DNA from: Alphaproteobacteria bacterium
GTDB taxonomy: Bacteria; Pseudomonadota; Alphaproteobacteria; JAJTHO01; CANGXP01
Direction of reading: 5' to 3'
Assembly: GCA_947457935.1 (NCBI GenBank)
Contig: CANGXP010000003.1
Span: 29,256 to 93,255 of the forward strand
DNA length: 64,000 nucleotides
Under the pieces are notes generated by a model that was given only the letters and a program-made list of their open reading frames with translations, searched no databases and was not told where the DNA came from. Below, one piece after another: positions 6,144-54,473 of the stretch; position 1 is the first letter of the stretch; each line of letters opens with the position of its first letter. Both the position numbers and the translations under genes were made by a program.

Positions 6144-6755
6144 ATGCAAAAATTTACGACTTTACAGGGCATTGTTGCGCCCTTGCCGATGATGAATGTC
6201 GACACCGACATGATTATTCCGAAGCAATTTCTGAAAACCATTAAGCGTACAGGGCTTGGCGCGAATCTGTTCCACGAAATGCGCTTTGATTATAACGGCG
6301 CACCGATTGCGGATTTTGTGTTGAACAAACCAGCCTATACCAAAGCAGAAATTCTGGTCAGCGGCGCGAATTTTGGTTGTGGTTCCAGCCGCGAACATGC
6401 ACCGTGGGCGTTGCTGGATTATGGGATTCGCTGTGTCATCGCGTCCAGCTTTGCTGATATTTTTTATAACAACTGTTTCAAGAATGGGATTCTCCCCATC
6501 GTACTGGATGCAGCGATTGTTGATACGCTTGCTGTTCAAGCCGCAACGGAGGGCACAACTTTCACGATTGATTTGCCTGCCCAAACAATCACCGATGCTT
6601 TAGGCAAAACCATTCCCTTTACCGTGGATGCCTTCCGTAAAAAATGTCTGCTAGAGGGCTTAGATGATATTGGTTTGACGCTGCAAAACGAGGAAAAAAT
6701 CACCGCGTTTGAACAGCAGAGTAAGCAGCAAAAGCCTTGGTTGTGGGCGGCTTAG
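6144..6755 (+). CDS. leuD: 3-isopropylmalate dehydratase small subunit
   Basis: [31 protein letters not shown] plus aconitase swivel-domain motifs. Start at MQKF (6144). Confidence 0.9.
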
Positions 6756-39582: not shown

Positions 39583-40866
39583 CTATTGTTCAAAAAACAC
39601 ACTCGGCTCAGGGGTGGGGCGCAAGTTCATGGAAGACGGTTGCTCATTCGGCTGCAGCGGGGCAGAGCGTTTTGGTGTGGTTTCTTTATTCGGCTTAGGC
39701 GATGCAACAGGGCTGCCGCCATACGTTGACAGTAAACGATTAAGATTTTCCGTTGTACCCGTATAGGCAATTCGCACACTCGCTTGCTGCGGTTGCAACG
39801 AAAGCACTTGCACATCATTGATGCCCTCTGTGCGCTCAAGGCGTTTTCTGATGCGCACCCAGTCTTGCATCCCTGTTAAAGGAATCGAGAGAACTTTGCT
39901 CGTATTAATGGGGGTTGTGTCAATCGCACCAGCGGCAGCATCCGCGACAAGTTCCGCGCCTTCTACACCCCCTTTGCTGTCTATTTCAGACGTTGTACTA
40001 TCAGGAAGGCTTTCCATTTTGCGCGGTGGAATTTGCAGGGCAGCAATAAGTTGCGGCACCGCACGCGCATACAGCGCACTCGCATCAAGCGGGTTGGGTT
40101 GACCCACACTGCTGATGCTAAAAAGCTCAGGCTCATACAGTTGCTTGCCACGGCTACGATTCAGCGCAACGGTAAGATCTAAGCCGTCTGGTTTTTCTTC
40201 CAACGCCGCAATCGCCACAATCACAATCTTGCTAACATACTTCACGGCAATATCTTGTAATGCATCTATATCGCCATTTTCAGCCGCGTCTTTGGTGAGC
40301 AAATTACCATCTTTCGCATCCCCCACAGGCGTAATGAAACCCAATGATTTCTTGCTATCAGGAAGGTTTTGCAGCGTAGATCGCCATAAATTCTCTGCTT
40401 CCCACAAATAGCTTTTGTCTTGTTGGCGTAAAACAGGGATGAGGAGGGGGGGCGTCTGCGCTTGTAAGCTATAAGACACATTATATTGCGCCAGATAGCC
40501 CTTTACCGCCTGTTTATTCAACTCAACAGTAATATCCGCGATATACCGCACGCGGGAAGCGCGTTCCTTATCAACGGAAACGGCAATCACATAGTTTTGG
40601 GCATTCTCCGCAGAAATTTCAGGCAGACGCTCTAGGTCAGCAGGGTCAACAACGAGCGCAAACAGTTGCTTCAGCGCAAGTTGCGGTGCAAGCAGCAACG
40701 CCTTGTTTTGTGCGGCGGCAGCGGATTTATCCGTCACATCAACATGCACCTGTTGCGCACTGAAAAGGTCAGGTGTATTGGCAGAGGCAGGGCGCACGCA
40801 CAGCGCCATGAGCACAAGAACGCAATAAAAAATCGGGAAGGCGACTGAAGAGCGGGAATGTTTCAT
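39583..40866 (-). CDS. DUF2066-like secreted protein
   Basis: 427 aa with a signal peptide and a Pro/Ser-rich C-terminus. Conserved position next to purM/hda in alphaproteobacteria. Confidence 0.45.
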   Translation of the reverse strand: MKHSRSSVAFPIFYCVLVLMALCVRPASANTPDLFSAQQVHVDVTDKSAAAAQNKALLLAPQLALKQLFALVVDPADLERLPEISAENAQNYVIAVSVDKERASRVRYIADITVELNKQAVKGYLAQYNVSYSLQAQTPPLLIPVLRQQDKSYLWEAENLWRSTLQNLPDSKKSLGFITPVGDAKDGNLLTKDAAENGDIDALQDIAVKYVSKIVIVAIAALEEKPDGLDLTVALNRSRGKQLYEPELFSISSVGQPNPLDASALYARAVPQLIAALQIPPRKMESLPDSTTSEIDSKGGVEGAELVADAAAGAIDTTPINTSKVLSIPLTGMQDWVRIRKRLERTEGINDVQVLSLQPQQASVRIAYTGTTENLNRLLSTYGGSPVASPKPNKETTPKRSAPLQPNEQPSSMNLRPTPEPSVFFEQ

Positions 40867-40923
40867 TGCATTTTTTACTGAGGGTACTAGTATGTTGTGG
40901 CATTATGAGGAAAGCAGTATACC

Positions 40924-42033
40924 ATGAACCACGACCCGCGCCATTCGTCAAGCACAACGCCTGTTCAGCACGGCGGATTAACCTATAAAAAGTCAGGCGT
41001 AAACATTGATGCAGGCAATGCGCTTATCGATATGATTAAGCCCGCAGCCGCCAAAACACGCCGTAGTGGGGTTACAACGGGGCTGGGTGGATTTGGCGCA
41101 ATCTTTGACATTAAAGCAACAGGGTATAAAGACCCCTTGTTGGTTTCCACCACCGATGGTGTGGGCACCAAAGTAAAAATCGCCGTGGAAATTCGTTCCT
41201 ATAAGACGATAGGGATTGATTTAGTCGCCATGTGCGTGAATGACCTTGTAGTACAAGGCGCAGAGCCGCTGTTCTTCCTCGATTATTATGCAACAGGTGG
41301 CCTACAACTTGATAGAGCAGCAACAGTGATTGAAAGCATTGCAGACGGATGCGTTGAGGCAGGTTGTGCGCTGGTGGGCGGTGAAACAGCGGAAATGCCG
41401 GGGATTTACCAAGGGGCGGAAATTGACATCGCGGGATTCGCGGTGGGCGCGGTTGAGCGCGATGCCGTTATAACGGGGCAAAATATTCAAGCAGGGGATG
41501 TGATATTGGGGTGTGCTTCAACAGGCGTGCATTCCAATGGCTACTCCTTGGTGCGGAAGGTTGTTGAGCATTTGAAGGCAGATTATTCTAAGCCAGCGGC
41601 ATTCTCTCCCCATCAAACCTTGGGCGAGGCATTGCTTACCCCTACCCGCATTTATGTTAAAAGCTGTTTGGCAGCGGCAAAAACGGGCGATGTACAAGGA
41701 TTTGTGCACATCACAGGCGGCGGCTTAATTGATAATATTCCACGGGTGTTGCCAGAAGGCTTGGGCGCGGAGATTGATGCAAAAAGCTGGTTTGTGCCAG
41801 AAGTGTTCTCATGGCTGCAAAAAGGTGGCAATGTTCCCGCGGTGGAAATGCTCCGCACGTTTAATTGCGGTATTGGCATGGTGGTAATTGTGCGCCCTGA
41901 TAAAGTAGACAGCATCAAGGCGATTTTGCAGCAGCATGGCGAGGAAGTATACCGTATCGGCGAGATTACCCCGCGTGCGGCTGATCGTGATTTTGTGCAT
42001 TTCCATAATTTAGAAGCGTTGTGGGCGGCGTAA
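40924..42033 (+). CDS. purM: phosphoribosylformylglycinamidine cyclo-ligase
   Basis: LTYKKSGVNIDAGN...GLGGFGA...VSTTDGVGTK is the AIR synthase signature. Confidence 0.92.
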   Translation: MNHDPRHSSSTTPVQHGGLTYKKSGVNIDAGNALIDMIKPAAAKTRRSGVTTGLGGFGAIFDIKATGYKDPLLVSTTDGVGTKVKIAVEIRSYKTIGIDLVAMCVNDLVVQGAEPLFFLDYYATGGLQLDRAATVIESIADGCVEAGCALVGGETAEMPGIYQGAEIDIAGFAVGAVERDAVITGQNIQAGDVILGCASTGVHSNGYSLVRKVVEHLKADYSKPAAFSPHQTLGEALLTPTRIYVKSCLAAAKTGDVQGFVHITGGGLIDNIPRVLPEGLGAEIDAKSWFVPEVFSWLQKGGNVPAVEMLRTFNCGIGMVVIVRPDKVDSIKAILQQHGEEVYRIGEITPRAADRDFVHFHNLEALWAA

Positions 42034-42072
42034 TTCAACCTAAAATATCTGTAATAGTTAGAAGGATTAACA

Positions 42073-42606
42073 ATGCGTTCTTTTTCTAAAAACCTCCTCG
42101 CGCTCGGTCTTGTCGTCGCACTGCCCGCCTGTGCTATGTTTTCCTCAGAGACAGCCAAAGTGGGTGCACCCGCAACGGCTGAACAAGCGAAAAAAGAGAA
42201 AATTGGCAGTATTTCAGGCGATAAAAACGGCTTTGTCCTGTTTGGTGGCAAGAAAAACAAAGCAGGGGAAGGGGCGGGCGGTATCGGCGTGAATGCCTAT
42301 CTGTGGAAAGCCTCCATCCAAACAATTTCCTTTATGCCAATTAATTCGGCGGATCCCTTTGGCGGCGTGATTGTCACCGATTGGTATTCTGCCCCTGAAG
42401 CCCCCGATGAGCGGCTAAAGCTGAACGTGTTTATCATGGATCAAGAATTGCGCTCTGATGGCGTGCGCGTGTCTGTGTTCAAGCAAGTGCGCCGTGGCGC
42501 AACGTGGCAAGATGCCCCCGTTGCGAAGGAAACTGCCCGTGGGCTTGAGGATGCTATCCTCACCAAAGCACGCCAGTTGCGCGTGGAGGCGTTGAGTGGA
42601 CAGTAA
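42073..42606 (+). CDS. DUF3576-like lipoprotein
   Basis: Lipobox LPAC. 177 aa. Conserved neighbour of purM in alphaproteobacteria. Confidence 0.5.
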   Translation: MRSFSKNLLALGLVVALPACAMFSSETAKVGAPATAEQAKKEKIGSISGDKNGFVLFGGKKNKAGEGAGGIGVNAYLWKASIQTISFMPINSADPFGGVIVTDWYSAPEAPDERLKLNVFIMDQELRSDGVRVSVFKQVRRGATWQDAPVAKETARGLEDAILTKARQLRVEALSGQ

Positions 42607-42700
42607 ACACTGTCTTTTAAGGTAGGGCACATTACTGCTATCCCCCCTTCACAACGCCCTAATAATCCGTTAAACAGGCTTTATTACTTACACGAAAGTG

Positions 42701-42831: not shown

Positions 42832-45480
42832 ATGACCGACCGTTACAATCCCAAAATCGCTGAACCACACTGGCAAGACAAATGGGCGGCACAAAACGTT
42901 TTTGTTGCGCCTAAGGAAAATCCTGCAAAGCCTTATTATGTCTTGGAAATGTTCCCGTATCCGTCGGGGAAAATCCATATGGGGCACGTGCGGAATTATA
43001 CGTTGGGCGATGTGGTGGCGCGGTTCAGGAAGGCACAAGGCTATGACGTGCTGCACCCGATGGGGTGGGATGCGTTCGGGCTGCCCGCCGAGAACGCCGC
43101 CATTCAAAGTAAGGTGCATCCTGCCGAGTGGACATATAAAAATATCAAAGACATGCGCGAACAGCTTAAACCCATGGGTTTAAGTTATGATTGGAGTCGG
43201 GAGATTGCCACCTGTTCGCCTGATTACTACCGCTTTGAGCAAGAATTTTTCCTCGAATTTCTGAAAAAAGGCTTGGCGTATCGTAAAGAATCTTGGGTGA
43301 ATTGGGATCCTGTCGAGCATACAGTTCTCGCCAACGAGCAGGTGATTGACGGCAAGGGTTGGCGTTCTGGCGCGGTGGTAGAGAAAAAACAACTCGCGCA
43401 ATGGTTTTTGAAAATCACTGATTATGCGGAGGAACTCTTACAGGGTTTAGAAACTCTAGCGCACTGGCCTGAAAAAGTGCGCCTCATGCAAGAACGCTGG
43501 ATTGGCAAATCACATGGCGCGGTGGTTGAGTTTAAACTGGTAAGAAAAGAAGACTGGACACCAGCTTTCGCAGGTGATTCGCACCACAGTCATTCGCCAC
43601 AACTCGGACGAATTGCCAGCGAAAGCTGGCATCCAGAAGAGGGTGCACTCCAGACCATCCCCGTGTTCACCACTCGCCCAGACACCTTATTCGGCGCGGC
43701 ATTCGTGGCAATTTCTCCGTCACATCCCTTAGCGGTTGACTGCGCGAAAACAGACCTAAAACTGGCGGATTTCCTCAAAGAATGCAACGCGCAGGGCACC
43801 TCAGAAGCCGCCATCGAACAACAAGAGAAAAAGGGCTATAAAACCCCGCTCACCGTTAAGCATCCATTTAATGATGCAGCAGAACTTCCTGTTTATGTAG
43901 CAAATTTTGTGCTCATGGAATACGGCACAGGCGCGGTATTTGGCTGCCCTGCCCACGACCAGCGCGACAATGATTTTGCCCATAAATACGCCCTGCCGAT
44001 TAAAACCGTGGTGCTGCCAACAGGGGAGAATCCCGCCACCTTTACCATTACAACAGAGGCCTACACAGGCGACGGCACGCTGTATAATTCCGATTTTCTG
44101 AACGGGCTTTCAGTTGCAGATGCTAAGAAAACAGCCGCTCAAAAACTAGCCGCCAACAAGCAAGGCGAGGCAAAAACCACCTATCGTCTGCGTGATTGGC
44201 TGATTTCCCGCCAACGCTATTGGGGTTGCCCGATTCCCGTGATTTACTGCGATAGTTGCGGGATTGTGCCTGTGCCAAAAGCACACCTGCCCGTCACCTT
44301 GCCCGAAGATATTGAACTCGGGCAGGCAGGCAACCCGCTTGACCGCCACCCAACGTGGAAACACACAACCTGCCCCCAGTGTAATAAGCCTGCAACCCGC
44401 GAAACAGATACGTTTGACACGTTTTTTGAGTCCTCGTGGTACTTTGCACGGTTTACAGGCTTGACCGCTGATAAGCCGTTTAACAAGGAACTTGCCGAGG
44501 CTTGGCTGCCCGTTGACCAATATATTGGCGGGGTAGAGCACGCGGTGCTGCACTTGCTCTATGCGCGATTTTTCACCAAAGCCCTCCGAGATGTAGGGTA
44601 TTGGCGGCTTTCAGAGCCTTTTAAAGGCTTGATGACCCAAGGCATGATTTGCCACCAAACCTTTAAAAACAGCGCGGGACAGTGGCTTTTTCCTGAACAA
44701 GTGGCGGACGGCGTGGAGATTGCCACAGGAAACCCTGTGACCATCGGGGCATCCGAAAAAATGAGCAAATCGCTGAAAAACGTGGTCGATCCTGACTATA
44801 TCATCAGCACCTACGGGGCAGATACGGCGCGGCTGTTCATGCTCTCCGATTGCCCGCCCGAACGCGATATGGACTGGACAGATAGCGGCGTTGAGGGCGC
44901 GTGGCGGTATACCAATCGCTTGTGGAAGCTGGTGCATGGCGCCATCCCTGCCTTGCCGCCTGTGGGCACAAAGGTAACGGATACAACACAGTATACCGAT
45001 GTGTTGCGCCTGATTCACAGCACAATTCATCATGTAACCCAAGATATAAGCCAGTTTCGGATGAATCGCGGTGTGGCCAGAATCCGTGAACTCAGTAATG
45101 GGCTAGAAGCCTTCAATGCCACAGACACAGCGGGTTTGACCGTTTTTCGCTTTGGTTTAGAAACACTGTGCCAACTCATCGCGCCGATGATGCCGCATCT
45201 TGCAGAAGAGCTGTGGAAATTGTTAGGGCATGAAACCCTTGTGATTCAAACGCCTTGGCCTGTTGCCGATGAAACATTGATGGCAAAAGACGTGGTGACG
45301 ATTGCGGTGCAAATTAACGGCAAACTCCGCGCTACGCTTGACGTTGCGCCCGATTTTCCGCAGAGTGAATTGGAACAACAAGCACTTGCCGCACCCACGG
45401 TTATCAAGGCGTTGGAAGGCAAAACAGTGCGAAAAATTATTGTGGTGCCGAATAAGATTGTTAATGTGGTGGCGGCCTAG
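42832..45480 (+). CDS. leuS: leucine--tRNA ligase
   Basis: 882 aa. HMGH class I signature (SGKIHMGHVRNY) and KMSKS. Full-length LeuRS. Confidence 0.97.
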   Translation: MTDRYNPKIAEPHWQDKWAAQNVFVAPKENPAKPYYVLEMFPYPSGKIHMGHVRNYTLGDVVARFRKAQGYDVLHPMGWDAFGLPAENAAIQSKVHPAEWTYKNIKDMREQLKPMGLSYDWSREIATCSPDYYRFEQEFFLEFLKKGLAYRKESWVNWDPVEHTVLANEQVIDGKGWRSGAVVEKKQLAQWFLKITDYAEELLQGLETLAHWPEKVRLMQERWIGKSHGAVVEFKLVRKEDWTPAFAGDSHHSHSPQLGRIASESWHPEEGALQTIPVFTTRPDTLFGAAFVAISPSHPLAVDCAKTDLKLADFLKECNAQGTSEAAIEQQEKKGYKTPLTVKHPFNDAAELPVYVANFVLMEYGTGAVFGCPAHDQRDNDFAHKYALPIKTVVLPTGENPATFTITTEAYTGDGTLYNSDFLNGLSVADAKKTAAQKLAANKQGEAKTTYRLRDWLISRQRYWGCPIPVIYCDSCGIVPVPKAHLPVTLPEDIELGQAGNPLDRHPTWKHTTCPQCNKPATRETDTFDTFFESSWYFARFTGLTADKPFNKELAEAWLPVDQYIGGVEHAVLHLLYARFFTKALRDVGYWRLSEPFKGLMTQGMICHQTFKNSAGQWLFPEQVADGVEIATGNPVTIGASEKMSKSLKNVVDPDYIISTYGADTARLFMLSDCPPERDMDWTDSGVEGAWRYTNRLWKLVHGAIPALPPVGTKVTDTTQYTDVLRLIHSTIHHVTQDISQFRMNRGVARIRELSNGLEAFNATDTAGLTVFRFGLETLCQLIAPMMPHLAEELWKLLGHETLVIQTPWPVADETLMAKDVVTIAVQINGKLRATLDVAPDFPQSELEQQALAAPTVIKALEGKTVRKIIVVPNKIVNVVAA

Positions 45481-45507: not shown

Positions 45508-46023
45508 ATGAATCTAAAGACTTTTTTTTCAACAGCCTGCCTTGTTCTCACCCTCACTGCGTGCGGCTTTCATCCGCTGTATAGCAAAAATGGGGCAACA
45601 ATCGCCACCACGGAACCCGCTGTGGCGGAGAACTTACGGCAAATCAAGGTACTGTCCATAGCCGATAGGGCAGGGCAGAAATTGCAATGGCAGTTGAAGA
45701 ACAGCCTTGCACAAGGCTATGAGCCAGACCGCCCGCTCTATCAATTAGCCGTAGGCTTAGACGAAAGCATTGGCTATCTGGGGATTCAGCAGGATGCCTC
45801 GTCCTCATATGGAAAACTGTCTATTACCGCAACATTCACCCTAACAGACACCAAAACAGGCAAAGTAGTGTTTGAAGACAAGCAAAAAAGCACCAGTGGC
45901 TACACGATTGTGGACTCTGAATATGCCTCTCTCAAAGCCGAGCAAGACGCACGGGACAAAGTGTTACGCCAATTAAGTGAGCAGATTACGCGGCGGTTAG
46001 CGTTGTTTTTTAATAAGAAATAG
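45508..46023 (+). CDS. lptE: LPS-assembly lipoprotein LptE
   Basis: Lipobox LTAC. 171 aa. Sits directly downstream of leuS as in the conserved leuS-lptE-holA arrangement. Confidence 0.6.
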   Translation: MNLKTFFSTACLVLTLTACGFHPLYSKNGATIATTEPAVAENLRQIKVLSIADRAGQKLQWQLKNSLAQGYEPDRPLYQLAVGLDESIGYLGIQQDASSSYGKLSITATFTLTDTKTGKVVFEDKQKSTSGYTIVDSEYASLKAEQDARDKVLRQLSEQITRRLALFFNKK

Positions 46024-46094
46024 CTTGCAATATAACCTGAGGTGTATACAACCCTGAATTATATATAGCATGTTGTATTTTTCAGGATATTTTT

Positions 46095-46904
46095 ATGGAA
46101 TATAGCGGTATTTATCGAGAGGTACAAATTTGTTCCTCTGGAACAGAGAAATCTCAAGAAGACCTAAAATTTCAAGAAGCATTAAAAATTGCAAGCCGCA
46201 TTTGGTGCGAGGCAACGGGCAATGATTGCCTGCCCAAGACTCATAAACATGCTGCTCCCTTATACCATCATATCCCCGATTATCCCACTATTCTTGACCA
46301 AGCGATTCAAGCCGCAGAAAAGCAAGACGCTTTTGTAATACTAGTTTATCAACCAATAGGGACGCATACGAGTGCAGAAAAATTGCCTTTATGGGCATTT
46401 GACGAAGAAATAGCAAAACAGCGGCTTGTGCCTGTTTCGTGTGCCTTACTGTGCGAAGGATTGCCGCCTCACAAAAACTATTTAGTGGGGGCTTTGCCCG
46501 TAGCAGAATGTAATCTATGGTATGGGGGACGCTTTGCAACGCTCTCGCAATATGGTCAACAAGGCAACTCTAAATTGTTGTGGAATGCAGCAATGCGAGA
46601 AGTTTTTGAGACGAGAGGTTCAGATCAACTCATTTTTTCAAGACGTGTGGGAGAGAACGATAGTAGCGGGAATGTTAACCCTCATGGCTATAAAGATGGT
46701 TTAGTGGCGTGGTATACACGCGAATTTGGCAGCCCAACCGTCATTCCTGTTCCCGAGCAAACCAATGCCGAAACAGGAGAACTGGAGAAAAGAGGGCTAC
46801 TAGAAGCTGTTTACACCTATTCGGCTCAAGCCTATTTTGAAAAACTACAAGAACGTGTTGCTGCAGCAAAAAATATCCGCAGTATGGTGGTGATAGCGCG
46901 TTAA
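46095..46904 (+). CDS. hypothetical protein (no recognisable family)
   Basis: 269-aa ORF interposed between lptE and holA, where those genes are normally adjacent. No motifs recognised. Confidence 0.45.
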   Translation: MEYSGIYREVQICSSGTEKSQEDLKFQEALKIASRIWCEATGNDCLPKTHKHAAPLYHHIPDYPTILDQAIQAAEKQDAFVILVYQPIGTHTSAEKLPLWAFDEEIAKQRLVPVSCALLCEGLPPHKNYLVGALPVAECNLWYGGRFATLSQYGQQGNSKLLWNAAMREVFETRGSDQLIFSRRVGENDSSGNVNPHGYKDGLVAWYTREFGSPTVIPVPEQTNAETGELEKRGLLEAVYTYSAQAYFEKLQERVAAAKNIRSMVVIAR

Positions 46905-47006
46905 CTATTTTCCCGCTAAATATCTGAAATTCATCAAAATTCGTTTTTGCCGATTTTCAGAAATTTGGCTCTATCCTGCCGTGGAAACAATGTTTCACGT
47001 GAAACA

Positions 47007-47074
47007 TATTTACAGCTTTATGTAAATTTAGTACACCAATCCTCATGAAAATTAACGATTCCGCCGCGGGTCGC
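47007..47074 (+). repeat. direct repeat copy 1 (duplicated holA promoter/start segment)
   Basis: 47-bp perfect match (tgtaaatttagtacaccaatcctcatgaaaattaacgattccgccgc) plus imperfect flanks to 48398-48465. Contains the ATG and first 9 codons of holA. Confidence 0.85.
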
Positions 47075-47107
47075 TGTATTCAAGCTGTAAATTCTATCGT
47101 TTTATAA
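47045..47107 (+). pseudogene. 20-codon remnant of the holA 5' end (MKINDSAAG...), duplicated
   Basis: Identical to the first 9 codons of holA at 48436, then diverges to a stop after 20 codons. Confidence 0.6.
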
Positions 47108-47120
47108 CAAATGATGGCGT

Positions 47121-47184
47121 AGTATAGTTAAGTATAGTTAAGTATAGTTAAGTATAGCGTGTTATAGTATAGTTAGACTATACT
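47121..47184 (+). repeat. iteron-like tandem repeats (AGTATAGTTA x3 plus degenerate copies) ending in inverted repeat AGTATAGttagaCTATACT
   Basis: Directly visible in the sequence; lies 20-80 bp upstream of the ATPase gene start. Confidence 0.8.
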
Positions 47185-47204
47185 CGTATAAAAAGGATAT
47201 ACTT

Positions 47205-48377
47205 ATGGATCCCGTACGCAATCCCTTTGCTCCTGGTGCTGGCAATCCCCCGCCTGAATTGGCAGGGCGAGACTCTATCTTACACGCAGCAGACATTGCG
47301 TTGCAGCGTATTTTGCTGGGCAGACACAGTAAATCCCAAATTCTCTTGGGTTTACGCGGCGTTGGAAAGACAGTTCTTCTCAGAAAATTGGAAGCAATGG
47401 CGCAAGGGCATGGGTATCAGACCTCATTCATTGAGGCACCTGAGAATAAATCCCTTGTGGAACTCCTCTATCCCAAGATTCATCAAGTGCTTCGTAAGTT
47501 ATCGAGCATTGAAAATGCAAAAATGATGAGTCTTAATGCAATGAGAACACTGCGTTCTTTTGCAAAAACATTCAAAATCTCTATCGAAGATATTTCTATT
47601 TCGGTTGATCCTGAAATAGGGAGTGCTGATAGCGGCATATTAGAATATGATCTCAGCGAGCTTTTTATTCGTGTGGGAGAAACAGCAAAAGCAGCTGGCA
47701 AAGGCTGGTGTCTTTTTATTGATGAAGTACAATATCTTTCCAAAGAAGAGCTATCAGCCCTTATAGTTGGCATTCATCACAGTAATCAGAAAAGCCTTCC
47801 TATTATGTTTTTTGGCGCCGGTTTGCCACAAGTTGCGGCGTTATCGGGAGACGCTAAGTCGTATGCAGAGAGGCTTTTTGATTATCCGCCTGTTGGTGCG
47901 CTTGATGCTGCCGCCGCTGTTGCTGCAATTAAACAACCTATTTTAGAGGAAGAAGAGCGTATTACAGAGGAAGCACTCGTCAGCATCATCGAAAAAACCA
48001 AAGGATACCCCTTTTTCTTACAAGAATGGGGTTTCCAAGTTTGGAATATTGCTGATCAATCGCCCATTAGTCCGCAAGATGTTGAACAAGCCACGCCCAT
48101 TGCCTTAAACAGGCTAGACGATAGTTTTTTTCGTGTACGATTTGAGCGATTAACTCCCAAGGAACGTGACTATGTTTGCGCAATGGCGCGGCTGGGGAAA
48201 GGCCCTTATCGCTCCGCAGATGTTGCTGATATAATGGGAGAAAATATACAGAAACTAGGTTCTTGCCGTTCACAGATTATCAATAAAGGGATGATTTACA
48301 GCCCCTCACACGGAGACATCGCTTTCACTGTTCCGCTGTTTGAGGAGTATTTGATGCGTACGCATGGAATAAAGTAG
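47205..48377 (+). CDS. STAND/AAA+ superfamily ATPase with C-terminal winged-helix-like region (archaeal-ATPase/COG1672-like)
   Basis: N-terminal NPFAPGAGNPPPELAGRDS motif (NPFxPGxP...GR), Walker A GLRGVGKT, Walker B LFIDEVQ, and GYPFFLQ downstream. 390 aa. Confidence 0.7.
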   Translation: MDPVRNPFAPGAGNPPPELAGRDSILHAADIALQRILLGRHSKSQILLGLRGVGKTVLLRKLEAMAQGHGYQTSFIEAPENKSLVELLYPKIHQVLRKLSSIENAKMMSLNAMRTLRSFAKTFKISIEDISISVDPEIGSADSGILEYDLSELFIRVGETAKAAGKGWCLFIDEVQYLSKEELSALIVGIHHSNQKSLPIMFFGAGLPQVAALSGDAKSYAERLFDYPPVGALDAAAAVAAIKQPILEEEERITEEALVSIIEKTKGYPFFLQEWGFQVWNIADQSPISPQDVEQATPIALNRLDDSFFRVRFERLTPKERDYVCAMARLGKGPYRSADVADIMGENIQKLGSCRSQIINKGMIYSPSHGDIAFTVPLFEEYLMRTHGIK

Positions 48378-48397
48378 CTTGAGAAGACACTCTTTAA

Positions 48398-48465
48398 CAT
48401 TTACGCTTTTCTGTAAATTTAGTACACCAATCCTCATGAAAATTAACGATTCCGCCGCTGGTCGC
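48398..48465 (+). repeat. direct repeat copy 2 (native holA start region)
   Basis: Matches 47007-47074. Confidence 0.85.
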
Positions 48466-49443
48466 CATGCCCAAGCCCTGCCAAAAGAGGTGCACTCTGT
48501 GTTGGTGTTTGGCTATGATGAGGCACAAATTCGTAATCGGGTGCAGCAGCTCACGCAACAGGTGTGCGCGGATGTGAACGATGCGTTTGCGGTGGAGACA
48601 TTGACCCCTGCTACGCTGAAAGACAATGAGGCGGCGTTGGCAACAGCGGTGTTGTCGCCCTCGCTGATGGGCGGGAAAAGAGTGGTGCGGGTGTTGGACG
48701 CAACCGATAAGCTTACCGCCACGCTCAAGGATTTACTGCCAAAGTTACCCGATGCCGACTGTTTGCTGATACTTTCTGCGGGAGAGCTGCCGAAAAATTC
48801 CTCTTTAAGACTGCTCTATGAGAATCACGCAACGTATTTGGGCTGGATTTGCTATAAGGAGGAAGGGGCAGCGTTGCAACGGGTGCTGCAAGAAGCACTC
48901 CAAGCAAAAGGGTTGACCTTGCCTGTTCCCGCGCAACAATATCTGCTCAGCGCCATCGACAATGAGCGCGGATTGCTTGCAGCTGAGGTGGAAAAATTGT
49001 TGCTGTATGCCTATCCCAGAACCGCCTTAACCCTAGAGGATGTAATTGCTAGCGTTGCAAGTGTTATGCAGTCTAGCATTGATGCGTTTTGCTTTGCGGT
49101 GCTGGAGAAAAAACGGGGGGCGATTCAGGCAGAATATGACAAGGCGGTTTTTGAAGGGGTGAATGAGATTGTGCTGCTGCGTGCCTTGCAAAATTTTGTC
49201 GGGCGATTGTTGCAGGTGAAAGCCCTGCAGCAAGAGGGGAAAACGCTGGCAATAGCGATGAAAATCTTAAAGCCGCCTGTGTTTTTTAAAGTGGAACAAC
49301 GTTTTGGTAAGTTGGTGCAAGAGTGTTCAGAAGAGCGGCTGAATACGCTTCTAGGGCTGTTTTTAGAGCTAGAAGTGACCGCCAAACGGGGACATGGCAT
49401 TGGCGAATTATTGGTGCAGCGGGCGTTGTTGCGCGGCGCATAG
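48436..49443 (+). CDS. holA: DNA polymerase III delta subunit
   Basis: 336 aa from MKINDSAAG. VLVFGYDEAQ with delta-subunit helical domains. Last member of the conserved leuS-lptE-holA arrangement. Confidence 0.75.
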   Translation: MKINDSAAGRHAQALPKEVHSVLVFGYDEAQIRNRVQQLTQQVCADVNDAFAVETLTPATLKDNEAALATAVLSPSLMGGKRVVRVLDATDKLTATLKDLLPKLPDADCLLILSAGELPKNSSLRLLYENHATYLGWICYKEEGAALQRVLQEALQAKGLTLPVPAQQYLLSAIDNERGLLAAEVEKLLLYAYPRTALTLEDVIASVASVMQSSIDAFCFAVLEKKRGAIQAEYDKAVFEGVNEIVLLRALQNFVGRLLQVKALQQEGKTLAIAMKILKPPVFFKVEQRFGKLVQECSEERLNTLLGLFLELEVTAKRGHGIGELLVQRALLRGA

Positions 49444-49505: not shown

Positions 49506-49960
49506 GCGTTTTGCGTGGGTGTTTTGTAAAAAATACCATTGTAAATCAATGTGTTGTGATTTTATGATTGAGGTGATTATCGGCTAAAACCCGCACAAAT
49601 CAATCGTTTCAAGCCAACTTGAAAAAACGACTTTGAAAAACAGTGTTTGTGTGAAAAATAAAATCGTTATAAATCAATATGTTGCAAGAAAATTTTTGCA
49701 CAAATAATCGGCTGAGAACAAGGAAAAAGGCGGCTTTCAAGTCATCCTGTGTAGTGGATGTTTTTTTGTAAGTATGGCGTGTGAAAATAATATTGTTGCA
49801 TATCAATAAGTTAGTTTGTTTTTGGATGCGCAAAAAATCGGCTGAAACCCGCTATTTTCCTTGGGTACAGGGCAAGTTTTGGGTGTAAAATTGGAGAAAG
49901 GGGTGTGTGGCGCAAGAAATACTTTTATTTTGTGTAAAAATTATTTGATTCCGTCTTGAG
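49506..49960. repeat. about 3.5 degenerate tandem copies of a ~130-bp unit in an AT-rich 690-bp intergenic region
   Basis: Recurring motifs GTG(T)GAAAAATA, ATTGT(A/T), A(A/T)ATCAAT(G/A)TGTTG and (T/A)ATCGGCTGA(A/G)AAC(C)CGC at roughly 130-bp phase (49517, 49650, 49780, 49905). Confidence 0.6.
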
Positions 49961-50133: not shown

Positions 50134-50733
50134 CTAGGGGCAGTTAGGAATTATTTCCTTAACTTCCGCTATAATGACGGGTGGGTTTTTAGTCCCGTCT
50201 AAAGAGCGAACAGTCTGCTCGTAAAAACGACCTTGTAAGTCGAAAAACACGTTGCTAGATGTGTCTTGGGCAGGGAATGCGCCCACATTGCGTGCTCGAG
50301 CAATCGTGAACAGTTCATTCCCATTTTTAGTGGCAAGCGTCACTAAAGAAAGATGGTCTGGCAAAGATTTCACCGAAATGGTCACGGCACCAGACAAGTC
50401 TAGTCTTGCAACAAGAGTGGTTGGGCAAGATTTATATCTTGTACCGTCCACTTTTAGCGCGCGACCAGTATTCGATCCATAGACGGACTTGGGAGTTCCA
50501 AGCCCTTCAAATCGAAACCAAAGAGCTGCTCGTTTTTCTTGAGACCCATCGATAGTGACTTCACCATCGATTATGTTGATACCAACTAATGGCTTGATAG
50601 CCTTGTCTCCAATCGTTCCCGAAATGGGATCGTTTTTAACATCATCTACAGACACGGGTCTGGCAGATACGGCAGGAACGAAAGCAACCAGAGCTAGAGC
50701 AAGAGCAAGATAAAAAAGAGCTTTGATGTTCAT
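50134..50733 (-). CDS. hypothetical secreted protein (signal peptide)
   Basis: Starts MNIKALFYLALALALVAFVPAVSA, followed by a ~175-aa beta-rich mature domain with no recognised family. Start placed at MNIKAL (50733). Confidence 0.5.
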   Translation of the reverse strand: MNIKALFYLALALALVAFVPAVSARPVSVDDVKNDPISGTIGDKAIKPLVGINIIDGEVTIDGSQEKRAALWFRFEGLGTPKSVYGSNTGRALKVDGTRYKSCPTTLVARLDLSGAVTISVKSLPDHLSLVTLATKNGNELFTIARARNVGAFPAQDTSSNVFFDLQGRFYEQTVRSLDGTKNPPVIIAEVKEIIPNCP

Positions 50734-50770
50734 TGTATTTGACGCGTAGCGAAGTGAGTAATTCAACTTA

Positions 50771-50786
50771 ATATATATATATATAT
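50771..50786. repeat. (AT)8 dinucleotide microsatellite in promoter region
   Basis: atatatatatatatat lies 40-55 bp upstream of the secreted-protein gene start, on the minus strand. Confidence 0.8.
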
Positions 50787-51038
50787 TAGTCAAGAATTTA
50801 ATTTATTATTTATGTATGGCTTGCGCGGAACGATGACGCTGCGTGTCTTTGCCTTGTAAAGGATAACCCATAAGCATTGTAAGGGTGGATACCCGACACC
50901 GTGCTTTTGCAAGGCAAATCCCCCAAAAGTAGAGGGATTTGGCAAAATCAGGTTCGAGTATGACACACGCGGAGAGTTGTAAAGACGAGGCGTTGCTTTT
51001 CAAGAAATTAACAGCCGTATTACGGGCTGACGAGCTTA

Positions 51039-51341: not shown

Positions 51342-54300
51342 CTACTTCCACACCGCGGCAATAATCCCGTCAAGCGCGGCACTCACATTAGTAGGGATAA
51401 CATCAGTTCTTGCAGGCGGCGTTGCGCCAAACGCACTCATGGCAGTAACAAGCTGTTGCACATTACTTGCCGCAAGTGTTTTGCCATCGGCAAGAGTGAA
51501 GGCATCAATACGACTGTTTACATCAGTGTACCAATTTTTCACCACCACAGCGTCGCTCGTTCCCACAATCGAAATTTTTAGGTCTTTATTCGCCTGAGTG
51601 AACCACAATTCTTTTGCATCGGTAACATTGGTGAGTTGTAGGGTATCCGTCGTTGTTAAGGAAGCGTCACTTTTTGTATTGACGATGGTATCTTGGTCAT
51701 AGCCCTTGCCAAAATTATAGGTAACGTCGCCTGCATCACCGTATAATGTGTCGTTTCCTGCACCGCCATCAAGTGTTGTACCGTTGCTAGAAGGCGCAAA
51801 AGGCAAGGTGACAGCGGCGGCGAGAGCAGGCTCTGGAGCAGTTGCAGCGGGTGCAAGTGTTTTCGCACCTACAGTGCTAGGCACATTAAACACGAGTTGA
51901 CTTCTGCCAAACAAGAAATTTACGCCTGTGCGGAGCAACCCGCTTTGGCTGGTGACAACGCCCGTTCTGCCGTTGGTTGTTTCAACACGCGCTGACTTAT
52001 TATCAAGCACTGTGCCGTTGACAGAGACACTACCCACATAAAGATTGCGGTCTTTACCTTTGCCGCCCCATAAATCGTTCGTGAACTCAATTTGAACGCG
52101 GGAAGACGGTTTAATACCGAAATCACCTTTGAGGGTGAATTCTTGCATGTCCGTTTTACCGTAAATGCTATTGACAGCGGTTGCGCCTTGAATTTGCTTG
52201 CCGTCTACCAACACACGGAATTCAGGCTTGCCCTTGTAATGGTCACCAGAGAGTTTGATAACAAGCGTATCAATGCTTGGCAGTGGTGGGGGTGGGGGGG
52301 GTACGCCACCGCCATCGGTAGGGGGCGTGACACTATTTTGTTCGCCGTTGGCATAAAGAGTGTCATTACCGCCGCCGCCATAAAGACTGTTATTGCCCGC
52401 ACCACCTTTAAGAACATCGTTACCGCTGTTGCCGTTATCAAGTGCGAAGCTCAGCGCACCATTTTCATAGAGGCGATATTGCCCCAGTTGTGCGCCAAAA
52501 CGCTTCATGTTATAGACGGCTTCTGTGCCTGCAAGGGGGAGTCCGTTAATAGCAACAGAATCCAGCCACAAGTTTCTGTCTTGGCGGGTTGCGTTGACGT
52601 ATTCATCATTCAAATATTCAACATCTAGTTTGCCCGCTAACACAGGCGTATCAAGGTTGAAGGTGAAGGTTTGCCGCTGTCCTTTGCTGTATTCAGCGGA
52701 GACTGTTTGCACAGCCCCGACTTGCTTGCCGTCTAACAACAAACGGAATTGCGCGTTGCCGTTGATGGTTGCATCGCCAGAGGCTTTAATCGTGATGCTG
52801 CTAATGGGCACACCATCTCCATAAAGGATATCATCGCCTGTGCCGCCATAAAGTTTGTCATCCCCACTGCCGCCCACGAGCGCGTCATTGCCTCTGCCAC
52901 CATAGAGGGTGTCGTTTCCTTGGTCGCCGAAGAGTGTATCATTGTCAGAAAGGGGTTTTGTGGTGGTTGCCGCTTGCTGTTGAAAGAGAGTATCCGCAAT
53001 CGGCAACTCTGTTTTTAGGTCTCCGTAGAGTGTATCATCGCCTTTGCCACCAAGAAGCAAATCATTGCCTAAGCCGCCGATGAGCAAATCATTGCCATCG
53101 CGTCCCGCCAACATATCATCGCCGATTTTCGCATCGAGCAGCTTTTGCTTCTCTGCGGTGGAAAGGGCGGCATTGTTGAGAATGCTGTTGAGTTCTGTCT
53201 CTGTTACAGCATCCCCTGTAAGAGAATCATTGCCTTGCAGCCCGTTGATAACATCGTCCCGTCCTGTGCCTGTAATGGAGAATGCGGTATCAAGGGCGGT
53301 ATGACGGTCTGCAATGGTGTTGTTGGTGTTGGTAAAAGTACCTGCCACGCCATCAAAACTAATAGGGATGCGGGTGCCCAAAATTTGGTTGTCTCGCGCT
53401 ATAACATTGCTGGGTGCAACCACAAAACCGGGGAAAGGGTTAACGCGAATACCATATTCATGTTTGTAGGCGGGGATAAAGTCAGCAGCAATCCCTTCAT
53501 TACCAAGAATAGTATTGCCTTCAATCACCGCGCCATTGGTGCTTTGCACAACAATATAGCCGCTACCATCACCACGCCAGTTTTGATAGCCTTGCACAGT
53601 GTTGTCTTTAATAACAACATCATAGACGGTTTGCGAGGGGTTTGCGAATTTGTTGACGGGGTGGAATTTAATTGCGTCTTTACCAAAATCTTTGACAAAA
53701 TTGTTGTTGATGACAACGTGATTTTGGTCTTCTATTTTAATACCGCCGCCGTTGACGTTTTTAATGGTGTTAAACTCAATAATCGCGCCACTGTGCGGCG
53801 GTTCTAAAGAAGAATCGCCCCCTGTTGCAGTACCTGTAACCAAAATACCTGCAGTGCCCATGGTGGCACGCGTGCCGTTTATGGCGGTGCCTAAGCCTTT
53901 ATCGCCATCGCCGATGATGGTGTTGTGTCCCGCATAAATGTTTTCAGCGCGTTTGAATTCAATCCCGCCATGCTGCCAGCTTGTAAGCGTGTTACCGATA
54001 GCACTGGGATTGTCTGTTTCAATAAACGCCATTGCGTTGCCCACCGTGTTGCTGATGGTGTTGCTGCTGGCTGTAACGGTGTCACTGTTGGTAAAACGAA
54101 TGCCGTGAATATAGGTATATTTTGCGGGTAGATTGGCTTGATTGCCGTCAATGTTGAGACCATTAACGGTCACATTGCGGGCGTTGTTAAAATCAAGCAT
54201 CCCTTCAATAGGGAGCATAGGTTTATAGGTTGTGGCGGCTTTAATGGTCGCACCAAGTCCTGTTACCGTTTGGTTTTGCCAGCCCTCAAAGGTGAGGCGA

Positions 54301-54473
54301 CCGCTAATAGTATAAGTGCCACTGGAGAAATTTAAGCTTAGGTTGTTGGCGGCTGCGTGTTTAATGGCAGCTTGAATGGCTTTGGTATCATCAACAATAC
54401 CATTACCAACAGCACCAAAGGCTTTGACATCAAGAATATTTCCAGCATTGCTGGCAGGCAGAACTGTACTCAT
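51342..54473 (-). CDS. large secreted RTX-repeat protein with N-terminal right-handed parallel beta-helix (pectate-lyase/AlgE A-module-like) and two ~90-aa internal duplicated domains
   Basis: 1043 aa. N-terminal beta-helix repeats (NGLNIDGNQ..., IGDGDKGLGTAINGTRAT). Multiple GGxGxDxUx nonapeptides (GGLGNDLLLGGKGDDTLYGD, GGRGNDALVGGSGDDKLYGGTGDDILYGDG, GGAGNNSLYGGGGNDTLY, GGAGNDTLYGDAG). Duplicated modules (ITIKASGDATINGNAQFRLLLDGKQVGAV... and LVIKLSGDHYKGKPEFRVLVDGKQIQGA...). No N-terminal signal peptide, consistent with type I secretion. Confidence 0.8.
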   Translation of the reverse strand: MSTVLPASNAGNILDVKAFGAVGNGIVDDTKAIQAAIKHAAANNLSLNFSSGTYTISGRLTFEGWQNQTVTGLGATIKAATTYKPMLPIEGMLDFNNARNVTVNGLNIDGNQANLPAKYTYIHGIRFTNSDTVTASSNTISNTVGNAMAFIETDNPSAIGNTLTSWQHGGIEFKRAENIYAGHNTIIGDGDKGLGTAINGTRATMGTAGILVTGTATGGDSSLEPPHSGAIIEFNTIKNVNGGGIKIEDQNHVVINNNFVKDFGKDAIKFHPVNKFANPSQTVYDVVIKDNTVQGYQNWRGDGSGYIVVQSTNGAVIEGNTILGNEGIAADFIPAYKHEYGIRVNPFPGFVVAPSNVIARDNQILGTRIPISFDGVAGTFTNTNNTIADRHTALDTAFSITGTGRDDVINGLQGNDSLTGDAVTETELNSILNNAALSTAEKQKLLDAKIGDDMLAGRDGNDLLIGGLGNDLLLGGKGDDTLYGDLKTELPIADTLFQQQAATTTKPLSDNDTLFGDQGNDTLYGGRGNDALVGGSGDDKLYGGTGDDILYGDGVPISSITIKASGDATINGNAQFRLLLDGKQVGAVQTVSAEYSKGQRQTFTFNLDTPVLAGKLDVEYLNDEYVNATRQDRNLWLDSVAINGLPLAGTEAVYNMKRFGAQLGQYRLYENGALSFALDNGNSGNDVLKGGAGNNSLYGGGGNDTLYANGEQNSVTPPTDGGGVPPPPPPLPSIDTLVIKLSGDHYKGKPEFRVLVDGKQIQGATAVNSIYGKTDMQEFTLKGDFGIKPSSRVQIEFTNDLWGGKGKDRNLYVGSVSVNGTVLDNKSARVETTNGRTGVVTSQSGLLRTGVNFLFGRSQLVFNVPSTVGAKTLAPAATAPEPALAAAVTLPFAPSSNGTTLDGGAGNDTLYGDAGDVTYNFGKGYDQDTIVNTKSDASLTTTDTLQLTNVTDAKELWFTQANKDLKISIVGTSDAVVVKNWYTDVNSRIDAFTLADGKTLAASNVQQLVTAMSAFGATPPARTDVIPTNVSAALDGIIAAVWK

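Follow-up and report, generated by a model that had tools for sequence, protein, structure and literature searches.

Introduction

The closest described structural relatives of the protein considered here are the archaeal Orc1/Cdc6 proteins (2qby, 2v1u, 1fnn), together with PAB2304 and SSO1545, two proteins for which we know of no established function. With the protein studied here they have in common an AAA+ base with a helical insertion between β2 and β3, a lid and a winged helix. Another group that enters the comparison is formed by the STAND immune receptors, which are typically tripartite, with an N-terminal effector and a C-terminal sensor (PMC13581612). The protein is an ATPase of 390 amino acids (aa), encoded just upstream of holA in a stretch of 64,000 nucleotides (nt) from an alphaproteobacterium (assembly GCA_947457935.1, contig CANGXP010000003.1, positions 29,256 to 93,255 of the forward strand), which as a whole is called the window. 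An initial annotation, made from the letters of the window, proposed that the ATPase gene and a neighbouring gene, here called ORF269, had been inserted between lptE and holA, and that the ATPase might be an antiphage or abortive-infection module. Below, the locus is compared with related contigs that lack these genes, with other copies of the ATPase gene and with known systems. Loci fetched for these comparisons are given as L numbers.

Two insertions upstream of holA

The DNA between lptE and holA has very probably received two independent accessory insertions at a polymorphic spot, the second of which is a 1391-bp unit with a single gene, the ATPase gene, accompanied by an exact duplication of 47 nt. 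The layout of the locus in window coordinates is as follows.

42832-45480, leuS
45508-46023, + strand, lptE (Pfam LptE, E = 1e-6), left border of the variable interval
46024-46904, + strand, leader of 71 nt followed by ORF269 at 46095-46904, the first and older insertion
46905-47020, native holA-upstream DNA, common to the empty-site relatives L011, L099 and L008 in alignments
46993-47004, palindrome TTTCACGTGAAA, within the native DNA before repeat copy 1
47004-47020, imperfect 5′ part of repeat copy 1, at the end of the native DNA stretch
47021-47085, + strand, repeat copy 1, with the perfect core at 47021-47067 and then an 18-nt inner arm at 47068-47085
47086-47204, + strand, cassette leader, AT-rich, with AGTATA-type boxes and the ribosome-binding site AGGATATACTT immediately 5′ of the ATG
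47205-48377, + strand, ATPase gene, 390 aa (Pfam AAA_16, 4.4e-10; AAA_22, 1.6e-9)
48378-48411, + strand, cassette tail, 21 nt past the stop codon and then the imperfect 5′ inner arm of copy 2 (48395-48411)
48412-48476, + strand, repeat copy 2, with the perfect core at 48412-48458 and then native holA; it supplies the working holA start
48436-49443, + strand, intact holA (DNA polymerase III delta subunit), 335 aa (Pfam DNA_pol3_delta, DNA_pol3_delta_C)

A repeat search of the window returned a direct repeat of 78 nt with 87% identity (47008-47085 and 48399-48476), the copies of which lie 1391 nt apart and share the perfect 47-nt core. The core covers holA upstream DNA, the ATG at 47045, seven complete codons and 2 nt of the next one. 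Even when 3 mismatches are tolerated, it is present exactly twice in the 64-kb window, where no occurrence is expected by chance, and it is therefore not a dispersed regulatory element. In copy 1 the ATG opens a holA remnant of 20 codons (MKINDSAAGRCIQAVNSIVL, then a stop codon at 47105-47107; the remnant spans 47045-47107). holA in fact begins with the ATG at 48436 in copy 2, which gives a protein of 335 aa, the same length as its homologues; in the HolA cluster at 90% identity, which has 10 members, all full-length sequences are 335 aa long. The TTG at 48379, given as the holA start in the list of open reading frames (ORFs), was rejected. The G+C content (GC) is 0.36-0.47 across 46000-48400 as compared to about 0.50-0.55 in the flanks. 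A terminator scan detected no terminator-like site between the ATPase gene and holA, and a scan of the locus for consensus promoters and terminators gave nothing above chance. A second record, L001, has the same locus with identical gene order.

For the comparison with relatives, the contigs of the 90% HolA cluster and the contigs carrying ORF269 homologues were used. A scan of genomes with HolA gave a single locus, L008, and the corresponding scan of metagenomes gave no relatives; the others came via the 90% HolA cluster. In this set, with the window included, the DNA upstream of holA occurs in five states. The canonical state consists of lptE, a gap of 43 nt and holA and is found in L009/L010 and in the JGI contig encoding P0132 (lptE at 639-1163, holA at 1207). 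Here window 46024-48398 is wholly absent: L009 1-280 corresponds to window 45741-46020, after which L009 resumes at window 48406. In the next state an ORF269 homologue is present without the ATPase gene, either as lptE, a homologue of 300 aa and holA (L099) or as a homologue of 380 aa followed by holA (L011). In L008 the gene in front of this upstream DNA and holA is a DUF2066 gene, which the window has on the opposite strand at 39583-40866; L008 3807-3941 and window 46940-47074 are 88% identical. Only the window has both ORF269 and the ATPase gene, and the 1391-bp ATPase unit was seen nowhere else among these relatives. In L098, finally, lptE and an ORF269 homologue of 266 aa are followed by divergence in the middle of the palindrome (between TTTCACG and TGAAA), after window 46999.

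Two of these arrangements deserve separate description. L008 1-3806 matches window 39584-42607, so that a block of DUF3576, purM and DUF2066 is inverted and abuts the holA-upstream DNA, with leuS and lptE not seen in between; either L008 has been rearranged at this junction, or its contig, from a metagenome-assembled genome, is chimeric. In L098, at about 1525-1581, the homology to the window stops inside TTTCACGTGAAA and unrelated sequence continues to the contig end, and this break at the palindrome points to a fifth structural state at the site.

Across the junction, the empty site in L011 agrees at every base with copy 1 up to and including the core, continued by the part of copy 2 to the right of its core; L099, L008 and L009 agree with it as empty sites for the ATPase unit. 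Because L011 has this exact empty site, the ATPase unit is a discrete gain of 1391 bp. The ORF269 segment is, as far as the gene orders in these contigs indicate, an independent and older gain relative to the state in which lptE and holA are 43 nt apart.

The junctions themselves have a regular structure. At the left end a host arm is followed by the perfect core and an imperfect arm, and at the right end an imperfect arm is followed by the perfect core and a host arm. The outer parts of the repeats follow the empty sites, exactly on the left of copy 1, which is identical to L011, and with isolated differences on the right of copy 2, where the sequence beyond the core is identical to L011, L008 and L009 for 25-26 nt before such differences appear. 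The inner arms are different. The 5′ inner arm (48395-48411) has 10 of 17 positions in common with the host sequence (P = 0.003 against random windows) and the 3′ inner arm (47068-47085) has 12 of 18 (P = 0.0005), and beyond the arms similarity drops to chance level (3/20 and 4/20). The inner arm of copy 1 deviates from all of the empty sites. No inverted repeats pairing the two ends of the cassette were found. Close relatives differ at 3-6 positions inside the 47-nt core, and a donor with a naturally diverged holA fragment is therefore not expected to give a perfect core. A simple Campbell-type or homeologous recombination with such a fragment was for this reason considered unlikely.

These results bear out most of what the initial annotation had said about the structure of the locus. 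It stated that lptE and holA are normally contiguous, as they indeed are in relatives with HolA at least 90% identical, that direct repeats with a 47-bp perfect core duplicate the holA start including the ATG, as the repeat search and the chance statistics confirm, and that a 20-codon holA remnant precedes the ATPase gene with intact holA behind it, which can be read directly from the sequence. Its central proposal, insertion of the ATPase gene into the 5′ end of holA with target duplication, is borne out by the exact empty sites in L011, L099, L008 and L009, and the comparison of the lptE-holA interval in relatives has defined the borders to the base. The contrary outcomes it had named did not materialize, since empty and canonical states exist where relatives might uniformly have carried both genes, and the core occurs twice in 64 kb where it might have been a common regulatory element. 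Its view of the 2.4 kb as one cassette has to be abandoned: ORF269-type genes stand between lptE and holA in relatives without the ATPase gene (L011, L099), and the repeats bracket the ATPase unit only, leaving ORF269 outside as a separate insertion. The term hotspot is justified in the narrow sense that the holA-upstream DNA is polymorphic in this lineage, with five states; a defence hotspot is not supported.

ORF269

ORF269 is a protein of 269 aa with only four homologues among 5.8 billion proteins, one of which is from the contig of the window itself; the other three (L098, L099, L011) adjoin lptE and/or holA. The gene is absent from L009/L010 and from the contig encoding P0132. No family match was found in Pfam (E ≤ 0.1), PADLOC, NCBIfam or PHROG, and this, with the homologue search, agrees with the earlier description of ORF269 as a protein of no recognisable family. 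The body of the gene (window 46110-46833 compared to L099 150-905) has 45-70% nucleotide identity and 45% protein identity, whereas its flanks have 85-93% nucleotide identity. This pattern of a variable body within conserved flanks suggests allele replacement or diversifying selection.

An AlphaFold2 (AF2) model of ORF269, built from 4 sequences, reached a predicted local distance difference test (pLDDT) score of 73. The top 50 Foldseek matches in the PDB were all GNAT acetyltransferases, with E about 4e-7 and template modelling (TM) scores of 0.42 when normalized to the query and 0.6-0.7 for the target. The candidate acetyl-CoA motif A loop (QYGQQGNS) is not conserved among the 4 homologues. 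We describe ORF269 as a lineage-restricted orphan with a predicted GNAT-like fold. That ORF269 belongs to the ATPase cassette was considered and rejected: the leaders of the two genes are only loosely alike, and ORF269 occurs without the ATPase in relatives.

The ATPase is predicted to be Orc1/Cdc6-like

The ATPase contains the N-terminal motif NPFAPGAG...GR, a Walker A motif GLRGVGKT (residues 49-56), a Walker B motif IDEVQ (Asp-Glu 173-174) and the motif GYPFFLQ, all of which are invariant across 51 homologues. In the alignment of these 51 closest homologues, with labels that include Alphaproteobacteria and one Bacteroidota, the mean column identity is 74%. The winged-helix segment LGxxRxxIIxKGMIYS is invariant or nearly so, and the region of the recognition helix is almost invariant.

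By sequence, Pfam assigns the protein only to the generic P-loop families AAA_16 (40.7 bits, cut-off 32.6) and AAA_22. The scores for PF24389 (ORC-CDC6-like; 21.8 bits, cut-off 27) and PF01637 (19.4 bits, cut-off 33.2) are below the limits, and that for TIGR02928 (Orc1/Cdc6) is 18.6 against a cut-off of 181.3 bits, which leaves the ATPase outside this family by sequence. No antiphage model of NCBIfam passes its cut-off (BrxD, 13.8 against 350 bits). PADLOC-DB v2 gave no significant full-length match; the best was PDC-S01 with E = 2.7e-4, restricted to residues 41-130, and BrxD and PtuA followed with weak matches at E about 0.005-0.01. PHROG 6841, a group of unknown function, also matches weakly. 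When PDB sequences were searched with the single ATPase sequence only noise was obtained, and the family profile found Cdc6 only (E = 0.0012).

An AF2 model built with the 51 homologues has a pLDDT of 84 and a predicted TM score (pTM) of 0.80. Its top Foldseek match in the PDB is 2qby_A, an archaeal Orc1/Cdc6 bound to origin DNA (7e-10), followed among the Orc1/Cdc6 proteins by 2v1u and 1fnn. Further matches are PAB2304 (2qen), SSO1545 (2fna), RuvB and clamp-loader subunits. For the matches of Orc1/Cdc6 and PF01637 type, E ranges from 7e-10 to 3e-7 and TM from 0.48 to 0.61. In the model an AAA+ base, a lid and a C-terminal winged helix cover all 390 aa, a predicted architecture that is Orc1/Cdc6-like. 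Model and fold matches account for the entire length of the protein and include no effector or sensor domain. The unit holds a single ORF, and Pfam detects no transposase domain in it.

The suggestion that the protein is an AAA+/STAND-like P-loop ATPase with a C-terminal winged helix is thus supported by Pfam, by the AF2 model and by Foldseek, with the winged helix present in the predicted structure and no effector fold. For the antiphage or abortive-infection function that had been proposed along with it we obtained no positive evidence: the PADLOC matches are at the level of the P-loop, effector and sensor are lacking, a conserved partner is not present and conservation is unusually high.

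Phased boxes in the leader

The leader of the window ATPase gene has four exact AGTATAGTTA boxes at 47121, 47131, 47141 and 47166 and inverted TATAC boxes nearer to the ATG. Tandem Repeats Finder reports a period of 10, 3.7 copies and 100% match. The boxes are a property of the family. In 68 family loci the leaders of 140 nt contain on average 1.79 TATAC/GTATA boxes, as compared to 0.015 in a control region further upstream and 0.36 in composition-matched shuffles. The boxes occur between -90 and -10, the spacing between boxes of the same orientation is mostly 10 or 19-20 nt, and the GC of the family leaders is 0.45 versus 0.60 further upstream. The leader at 47086-47204 is likely to contain the promoter and operator. 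We predict that the ATPase binds there as an oligomer, because the boxes are conserved and phased and the recognition helix is almost invariant.

The ATPase family and its genomic contexts

The ATPase has more than 8000 matches, the top 120 of which are all at least 68% identical to it; those with a label are mostly Alphaproteobacteria, with one Bacteroidota. An exhaustive search of cluster representatives gave 823 clusters (50% identity) at E < 1e-30; among the 150 representatives with the highest scores, nearly all have a length of about 390 aa. In every context examined, the ATPase gene is a lone gene in an unrelated neighbourhood. In L002 it has DUF2948 and hisD on one side and murA on the other, and in L004 a ferredoxin gene on one side and a small unannotated ORF followed by nrdD on the other. 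L012, which encodes the closest ATPase homologue (82% identical), has thrC and tRNA-Thr on one side and DUF2157 on the other. The gene lies between kdpD and argS in L013, and in L014 it is preceded by an unannotated ORF and followed by mnmA. Neither a conserved partner nor an integrase was found among 96 flanking ORFs from 51 metagenome loci. These ORFs include 2 HsdS, 1 HsdM, 1 SWI2/SNF2 and 1 YhcG, the rest being mostly metabolic or housekeeping, all given here as raw counts.

Plasmid copies are rare (hits in 119 of 72,556 records). Among 60 that were sampled none is on a plasmid shorter than 11.5 kb, and the full-length matches are all on plasmids of at least 52 kb. In the three loci on large plasmids that were inspected (L015-L017) the ATPase gene is cargo beside partition, toxin-antitoxin or imuABC-type genes. 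Terminal overlap, indicative of a circular contig, was found in none of 97 fetched loci. The family is nearly absent from phage records. A relative with 42% identity is encoded at 1116-2321 of L100 (MT837995.1), an unverified contig of 5.9 kb from human faeces labelled 'Bacteriophage sp.'. Literature searches on AAA_16/AAA_22 with mobile elements, on COG1672/PF01637 and on Cdc6-like proteins with anti-phage returned no description of this ATPase family.

Flanking duplications in the family

Direct repeats on both sides of the ATPase gene were found in 8 of 80 loci with adequate flanks, with lengths of 16-126 nt; when flanks were mispaired as a control, a single match of 15 nt was obtained. Long repeats occur in the window, L012 (64 nt), L082 (at least 64 nt), L094 (110-126 nt) and L045 (41 nt), and shorter ones in L078, L057 and L067. 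A search of the 537 kb of fetched DNA for repeat pairs with a length of at least 35 nt and a spacing of 1-3 kb gave 4 loci in which they flank the ATPase gene and only 2 loci in which they lie elsewhere; with L012 and L082, which were added by the flank search, the number of bracketed ATPase loci becomes 6. Across the family the spacing of the repeats is 1.39-1.75 kb. The ends of the cassettes vary, the distance from the end of the repeat to the ATG being 89-323 nt, and the cassettes have no terminal sequence in common.

In 3 of the 8 repeat loci, what has been duplicated is one end of a target gene, of which one copy remains whole. In L045 the repeat is formed by the 3′ 41 nt, the 3′ half, of a tRNA-Val(CAC) gene, and 1 nt separates its beginning from the gene's 3′ end. 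In L094 it comprises the 3′ end of a gene for a 90-aa SEC-C-motif protein together with downstream DNA, and the 5′ end of holA in the window is the third case. L012 has an intact tRNA-Thr(CGT), an inverted 25-nt copy of the tRNA 3′ end just past the ATPase stop codon and a direct repeat of 64 nt; these features lie at 4715-4790, 6200-6226 and 6351-6414. The 64-nt repeat of L012 looks as if it encoded the C-terminal end of a small protein (...NRIEELQVVLQDWAE[I/L]FKS...).

Other features of the window and its relatives

The remainder of the window is core chromosome, with purH, rsmB, leuD, leuB, dnaN, groEL, dnaK, flagellar genes, ligA, purM, leuS, ccmF and fabG. An Rfam scan of the whole window found tRNA-Leu only, and domain searches detected no recombinase among the genes of the 64-kb window. 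Downstream of holA, window 49515-49900 contains three tandem-like units of about 129 nt with 42-nt cores at 49515, 49643 and 49772, as well as a second repeated 19-mer and a 21-nt inverted pair. The 42-nt core also occurs at other positions in L008, L009 and L011 and is thus a dispersed repeat in the lineage. At 51342-54473 the minus strand encodes a protein of 1043 aa with beta-helix, RTX (HemolysinCabind) and CBM60 domains. Its neighbour, an ORF of 219 aa without family match (50134-50793), is 74% identical to L009 as compared to 87-90% for the surrounding DNA. A further small accessory presence/absence difference is seen at window 55941/55968, where L009 7715-8291 contains an insert of 577 nt with an ORF of 71 aa and a ParE-family toxin gene, located between a glycosyltransferase gene and a PfkB/cytidylyltransferase gene; the window has no insert here.

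Possible mechanisms

The explanation that we consider probable overall combines an insertion with a rescue duplication, a route of insertion that is deduced from the junctions and an ATPase that acts as a DNA switch. The course of the insertions themselves is very probable. An older insertion carrying ORF269 first entered between lptE and holA. A unit consisting of a leader of ~120 nt, the ATPase gene and a tail of ~20 nt then entered the first codons of holA, with duplication of 47 nt and with each junction placed within a patch of 17-18 nt of imperfect homology. The outcome is a dead stub of 20 codons upstream and the essential holA gene intact downstream.

Two routes come into consideration for the second step. 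At this locus, microhomology-guided illegitimate insertion or template switching that re-copied the 47 nt is the route we favour, although we stop short of calling it probable; the preference is based on the core being perfect despite the differences of relatives inside it and on the absence of conserved cassette termini in the family. A somewhat weaker candidate is a Campbell-type event, in which a circular form integrates at an att-like site by means of a recombinase acting in trans; we retain it for the family because of the tRNA-Val case in L045. As for the protein, it could be a nucleotide-dependent DNA-binding switch of the Orc1/Cdc6 type, probably oligomerising through its winged helix on the boxes of its own leader and in that way autoregulatory, a proposal based on sequence and model that we put forward tentatively.

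Several observations do not fit easily with this scheme. An excised circle, a free replicon or a small plasmid with the gene was not encountered among the fetched loci and the 60 plasmids sampled. A recombinase is present neither in the 64-kb window nor beside the other copies, so that the Campbell route needs an unseen factor acting in trans. The case for binding of the protein to the boxes consists of their co-occurrence and phasing, and the scan for a consensus promoter in the leader gave a result not above chance. About 90% of the family loci have no flanking repeat, and the duplication may be an occasional by-product and not the rule. The comparison with matched empty sites covers, among the repeat-bearing loci, that of the window only.

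Other explanations have to be weighed against the same evidence. That there was no insertion at all, both genes being native and the repeat a regulatory element or an assembly artefact, can practically be dismissed. The identical gene order in the L001 record makes the arrangement reproducible in assembly, yet relatives with HolA at least 90% identical, in which empty sites and the canonical lptE-holA arrangement exist, refute this explanation; moreover, the repeat has no more than two copies in 64 kb, GC is lowered in the interval and homologues of the ATPase occur in unrelated contexts elsewhere. A single-gene antiphage or abortive-infection STAND module residing in a defence hotspot would account for an accessory gene whose presence varies between close relatives and whose product is an AAA_16-type P-loop ATPase with weak PADLOC matches to PDC-S01, BrxD and PtuA. 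It would also suit the few family copies beside type I restriction genes, a SWI2/SNF2 ATPase or a YhcG nuclease and the relatives in one phage-labelled contig and in PHROG 6841. We regard it as improbable, since the PADLOC matches are confined to the P-loop (best E = 2.7e-4, residues 41-130) and no NCBIfam antiphage model exceeds its cut-off, the effector and sensor typical of STAND receptors are lacking (PMC13581612), the neighbours in the family are mostly housekeeping genes, and the very high conservation among the 51 closest homologues from several lineages is unlike the diversification of sensors in an arms race.

A less improbable alternative, though still an unlikely one, is that the 1.39-kb unit is a site-specific integrative cassette without integrase, which recombines at an att-like site of ~82 nt by means of a trans-acting recombinase of the tyrosine or serine type, with the repeats as attL and attR. 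The arm-core-arm geometry would fit such sites, the repeat of the tRNA-Val 3′ end in L045 is a classic integrase signature, the L012 cassette adjoins a tRNA-Thr gene and has close to it an inverted piece of the 3′ end of this tRNA, and the duplication restores the end of the target gene in all three cases examined. However, no integrase is found in the window or beside ~60 family copies, and the targets all differ (holA 5′ end, tRNA-Val, SEC-C-motif gene, others), which would require many recombinases. The repeats range from 16 to 126 nt in length and end 89-323 nt before the ATG without a conserved terminal sequence, and no circular form is present among the fetched loci. Very unlikely is the related idea of an autonomous mini-replicon or self-mobilising element, either the unit itself or an ancestor of it, in which the ATPase acts on the phased boxes like an initiator on iterons, with a circular form that persists and integrates. 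The closest folds are indeed those of origin-binding Orc1/Cdc6 proteins, throughout the family the gene is accompanied by an AT-rich leader with phased 10-nt boxes, and the unit is compact and self-contained with a consistent repeat spacing of 1.39-1.75 kb. Against this stand the size of the plasmids (none below 11.5 kb among the 60 sampled of 119 hits, full-length matches at 52 kb or more), the cargo position of the gene in the three plasmid loci inspected, in one of them beside separate partition genes, the absence of circular contigs among 97 loci and a TIGR02928 score of 18.6, far under the 181-bit cut-off for Orc1/Cdc6. A bolder version of the insertion with rescue duplication, which we rate as improbable as the defence module, is that the ATPase and its phased-box leader form an unrecognised minimal mobile unit of ~1.4 kb, with one protein and no canonical recombinase, that spreads into gene ends with variable target duplications which keep the targets working. 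The ATPase would then help the unit to be maintained or to integrate, for instance through assembly on the boxes in a circular intermediate.

Significance and comparison with known systems

The locus offers a clean natural example of how a foreign gene came to lie in the first codons of an essential replication gene, with survival through the duplicated start, and the matched empty sites in close relatives define the event to the base. Insertion with rescue duplication is a known kind of event; its cargo here belongs to a very large, strongly conserved and uncharacterised family, and recurrent long target duplications around a gene without a linked recombinase are unusual. The locus in this way draws attention to an unnamed, very large bacterial family of solitary Orc1/Cdc6-like ATPases with their own phased boxes. 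Should a dedicated insertion route lie behind the duplications, they would define a class of mobile unit that is both new and very small. Otherwise, what is left is still an abundant and strongly conserved family of predicted DNA-binding ATPases that is open to biochemical testing.

The relation to the Orc1/Cdc6 initiators is not limited to the fold, because the ATPase gene is preceded by short phased repeats in AT-rich DNA that resemble initiator boxes. The window ATPase differs in being bacterial, solitary and horizontally scattered and in scoring far under the family cut-offs. A location of the gene at an origin is without support: phased boxes lie upstream of it, but no small replicon with the gene occurs among the plasmids sampled. 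With STAND receptors such as Avs and the NLR-like proteins, the ATPase has in common an AAA_16/STAND-like P-loop NTPase, the NPFxPG...GR lead-in and an accessory, patchy distribution. It differs from their tripartite form (PMC13581612) by the lack of effector and sensor and of a PADLOC family match, and it is conserved rather than diversifying. ORF269, for its part, resembles the GNAT acetyltransferases in its predicted fold, with which all top 50 structural matches agree, but has no Pfam GNAT match and a variable motif A loop, and its model, made from 4 sequences, is of moderate confidence.

Regarding the insertion itself, integrative elements that target gene ends, including integrase-less ones that are mobilisable in cis, resemble the ATPase unit in the direct repeats of target sequence, the intact target, the matched empty sites and the copy at tRNA-Val. 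The unit differs in its size of 1.4 kb, its single gene, the lack of a recombinase in or near it, the unrelated targets and the variable repeats and ends. It is also distinct from an insertion sequence or transposon, since there is no transposase, there are no terminal inverted repeats and the duplications are long and variable (16-126 nt). The arrangement of a truncated 5′ copy, an insert and a complete gene, with junctions in short imperfect homology, is also produced by single crossover of a suicide plasmid and by template-switch insertions. Those are laboratory or sporadic repair events, whereas the duplications in the family of the window ATPase recur in at least 5-8 independent loci. Such recurrence around one gene family suggests more than a one-off accident.

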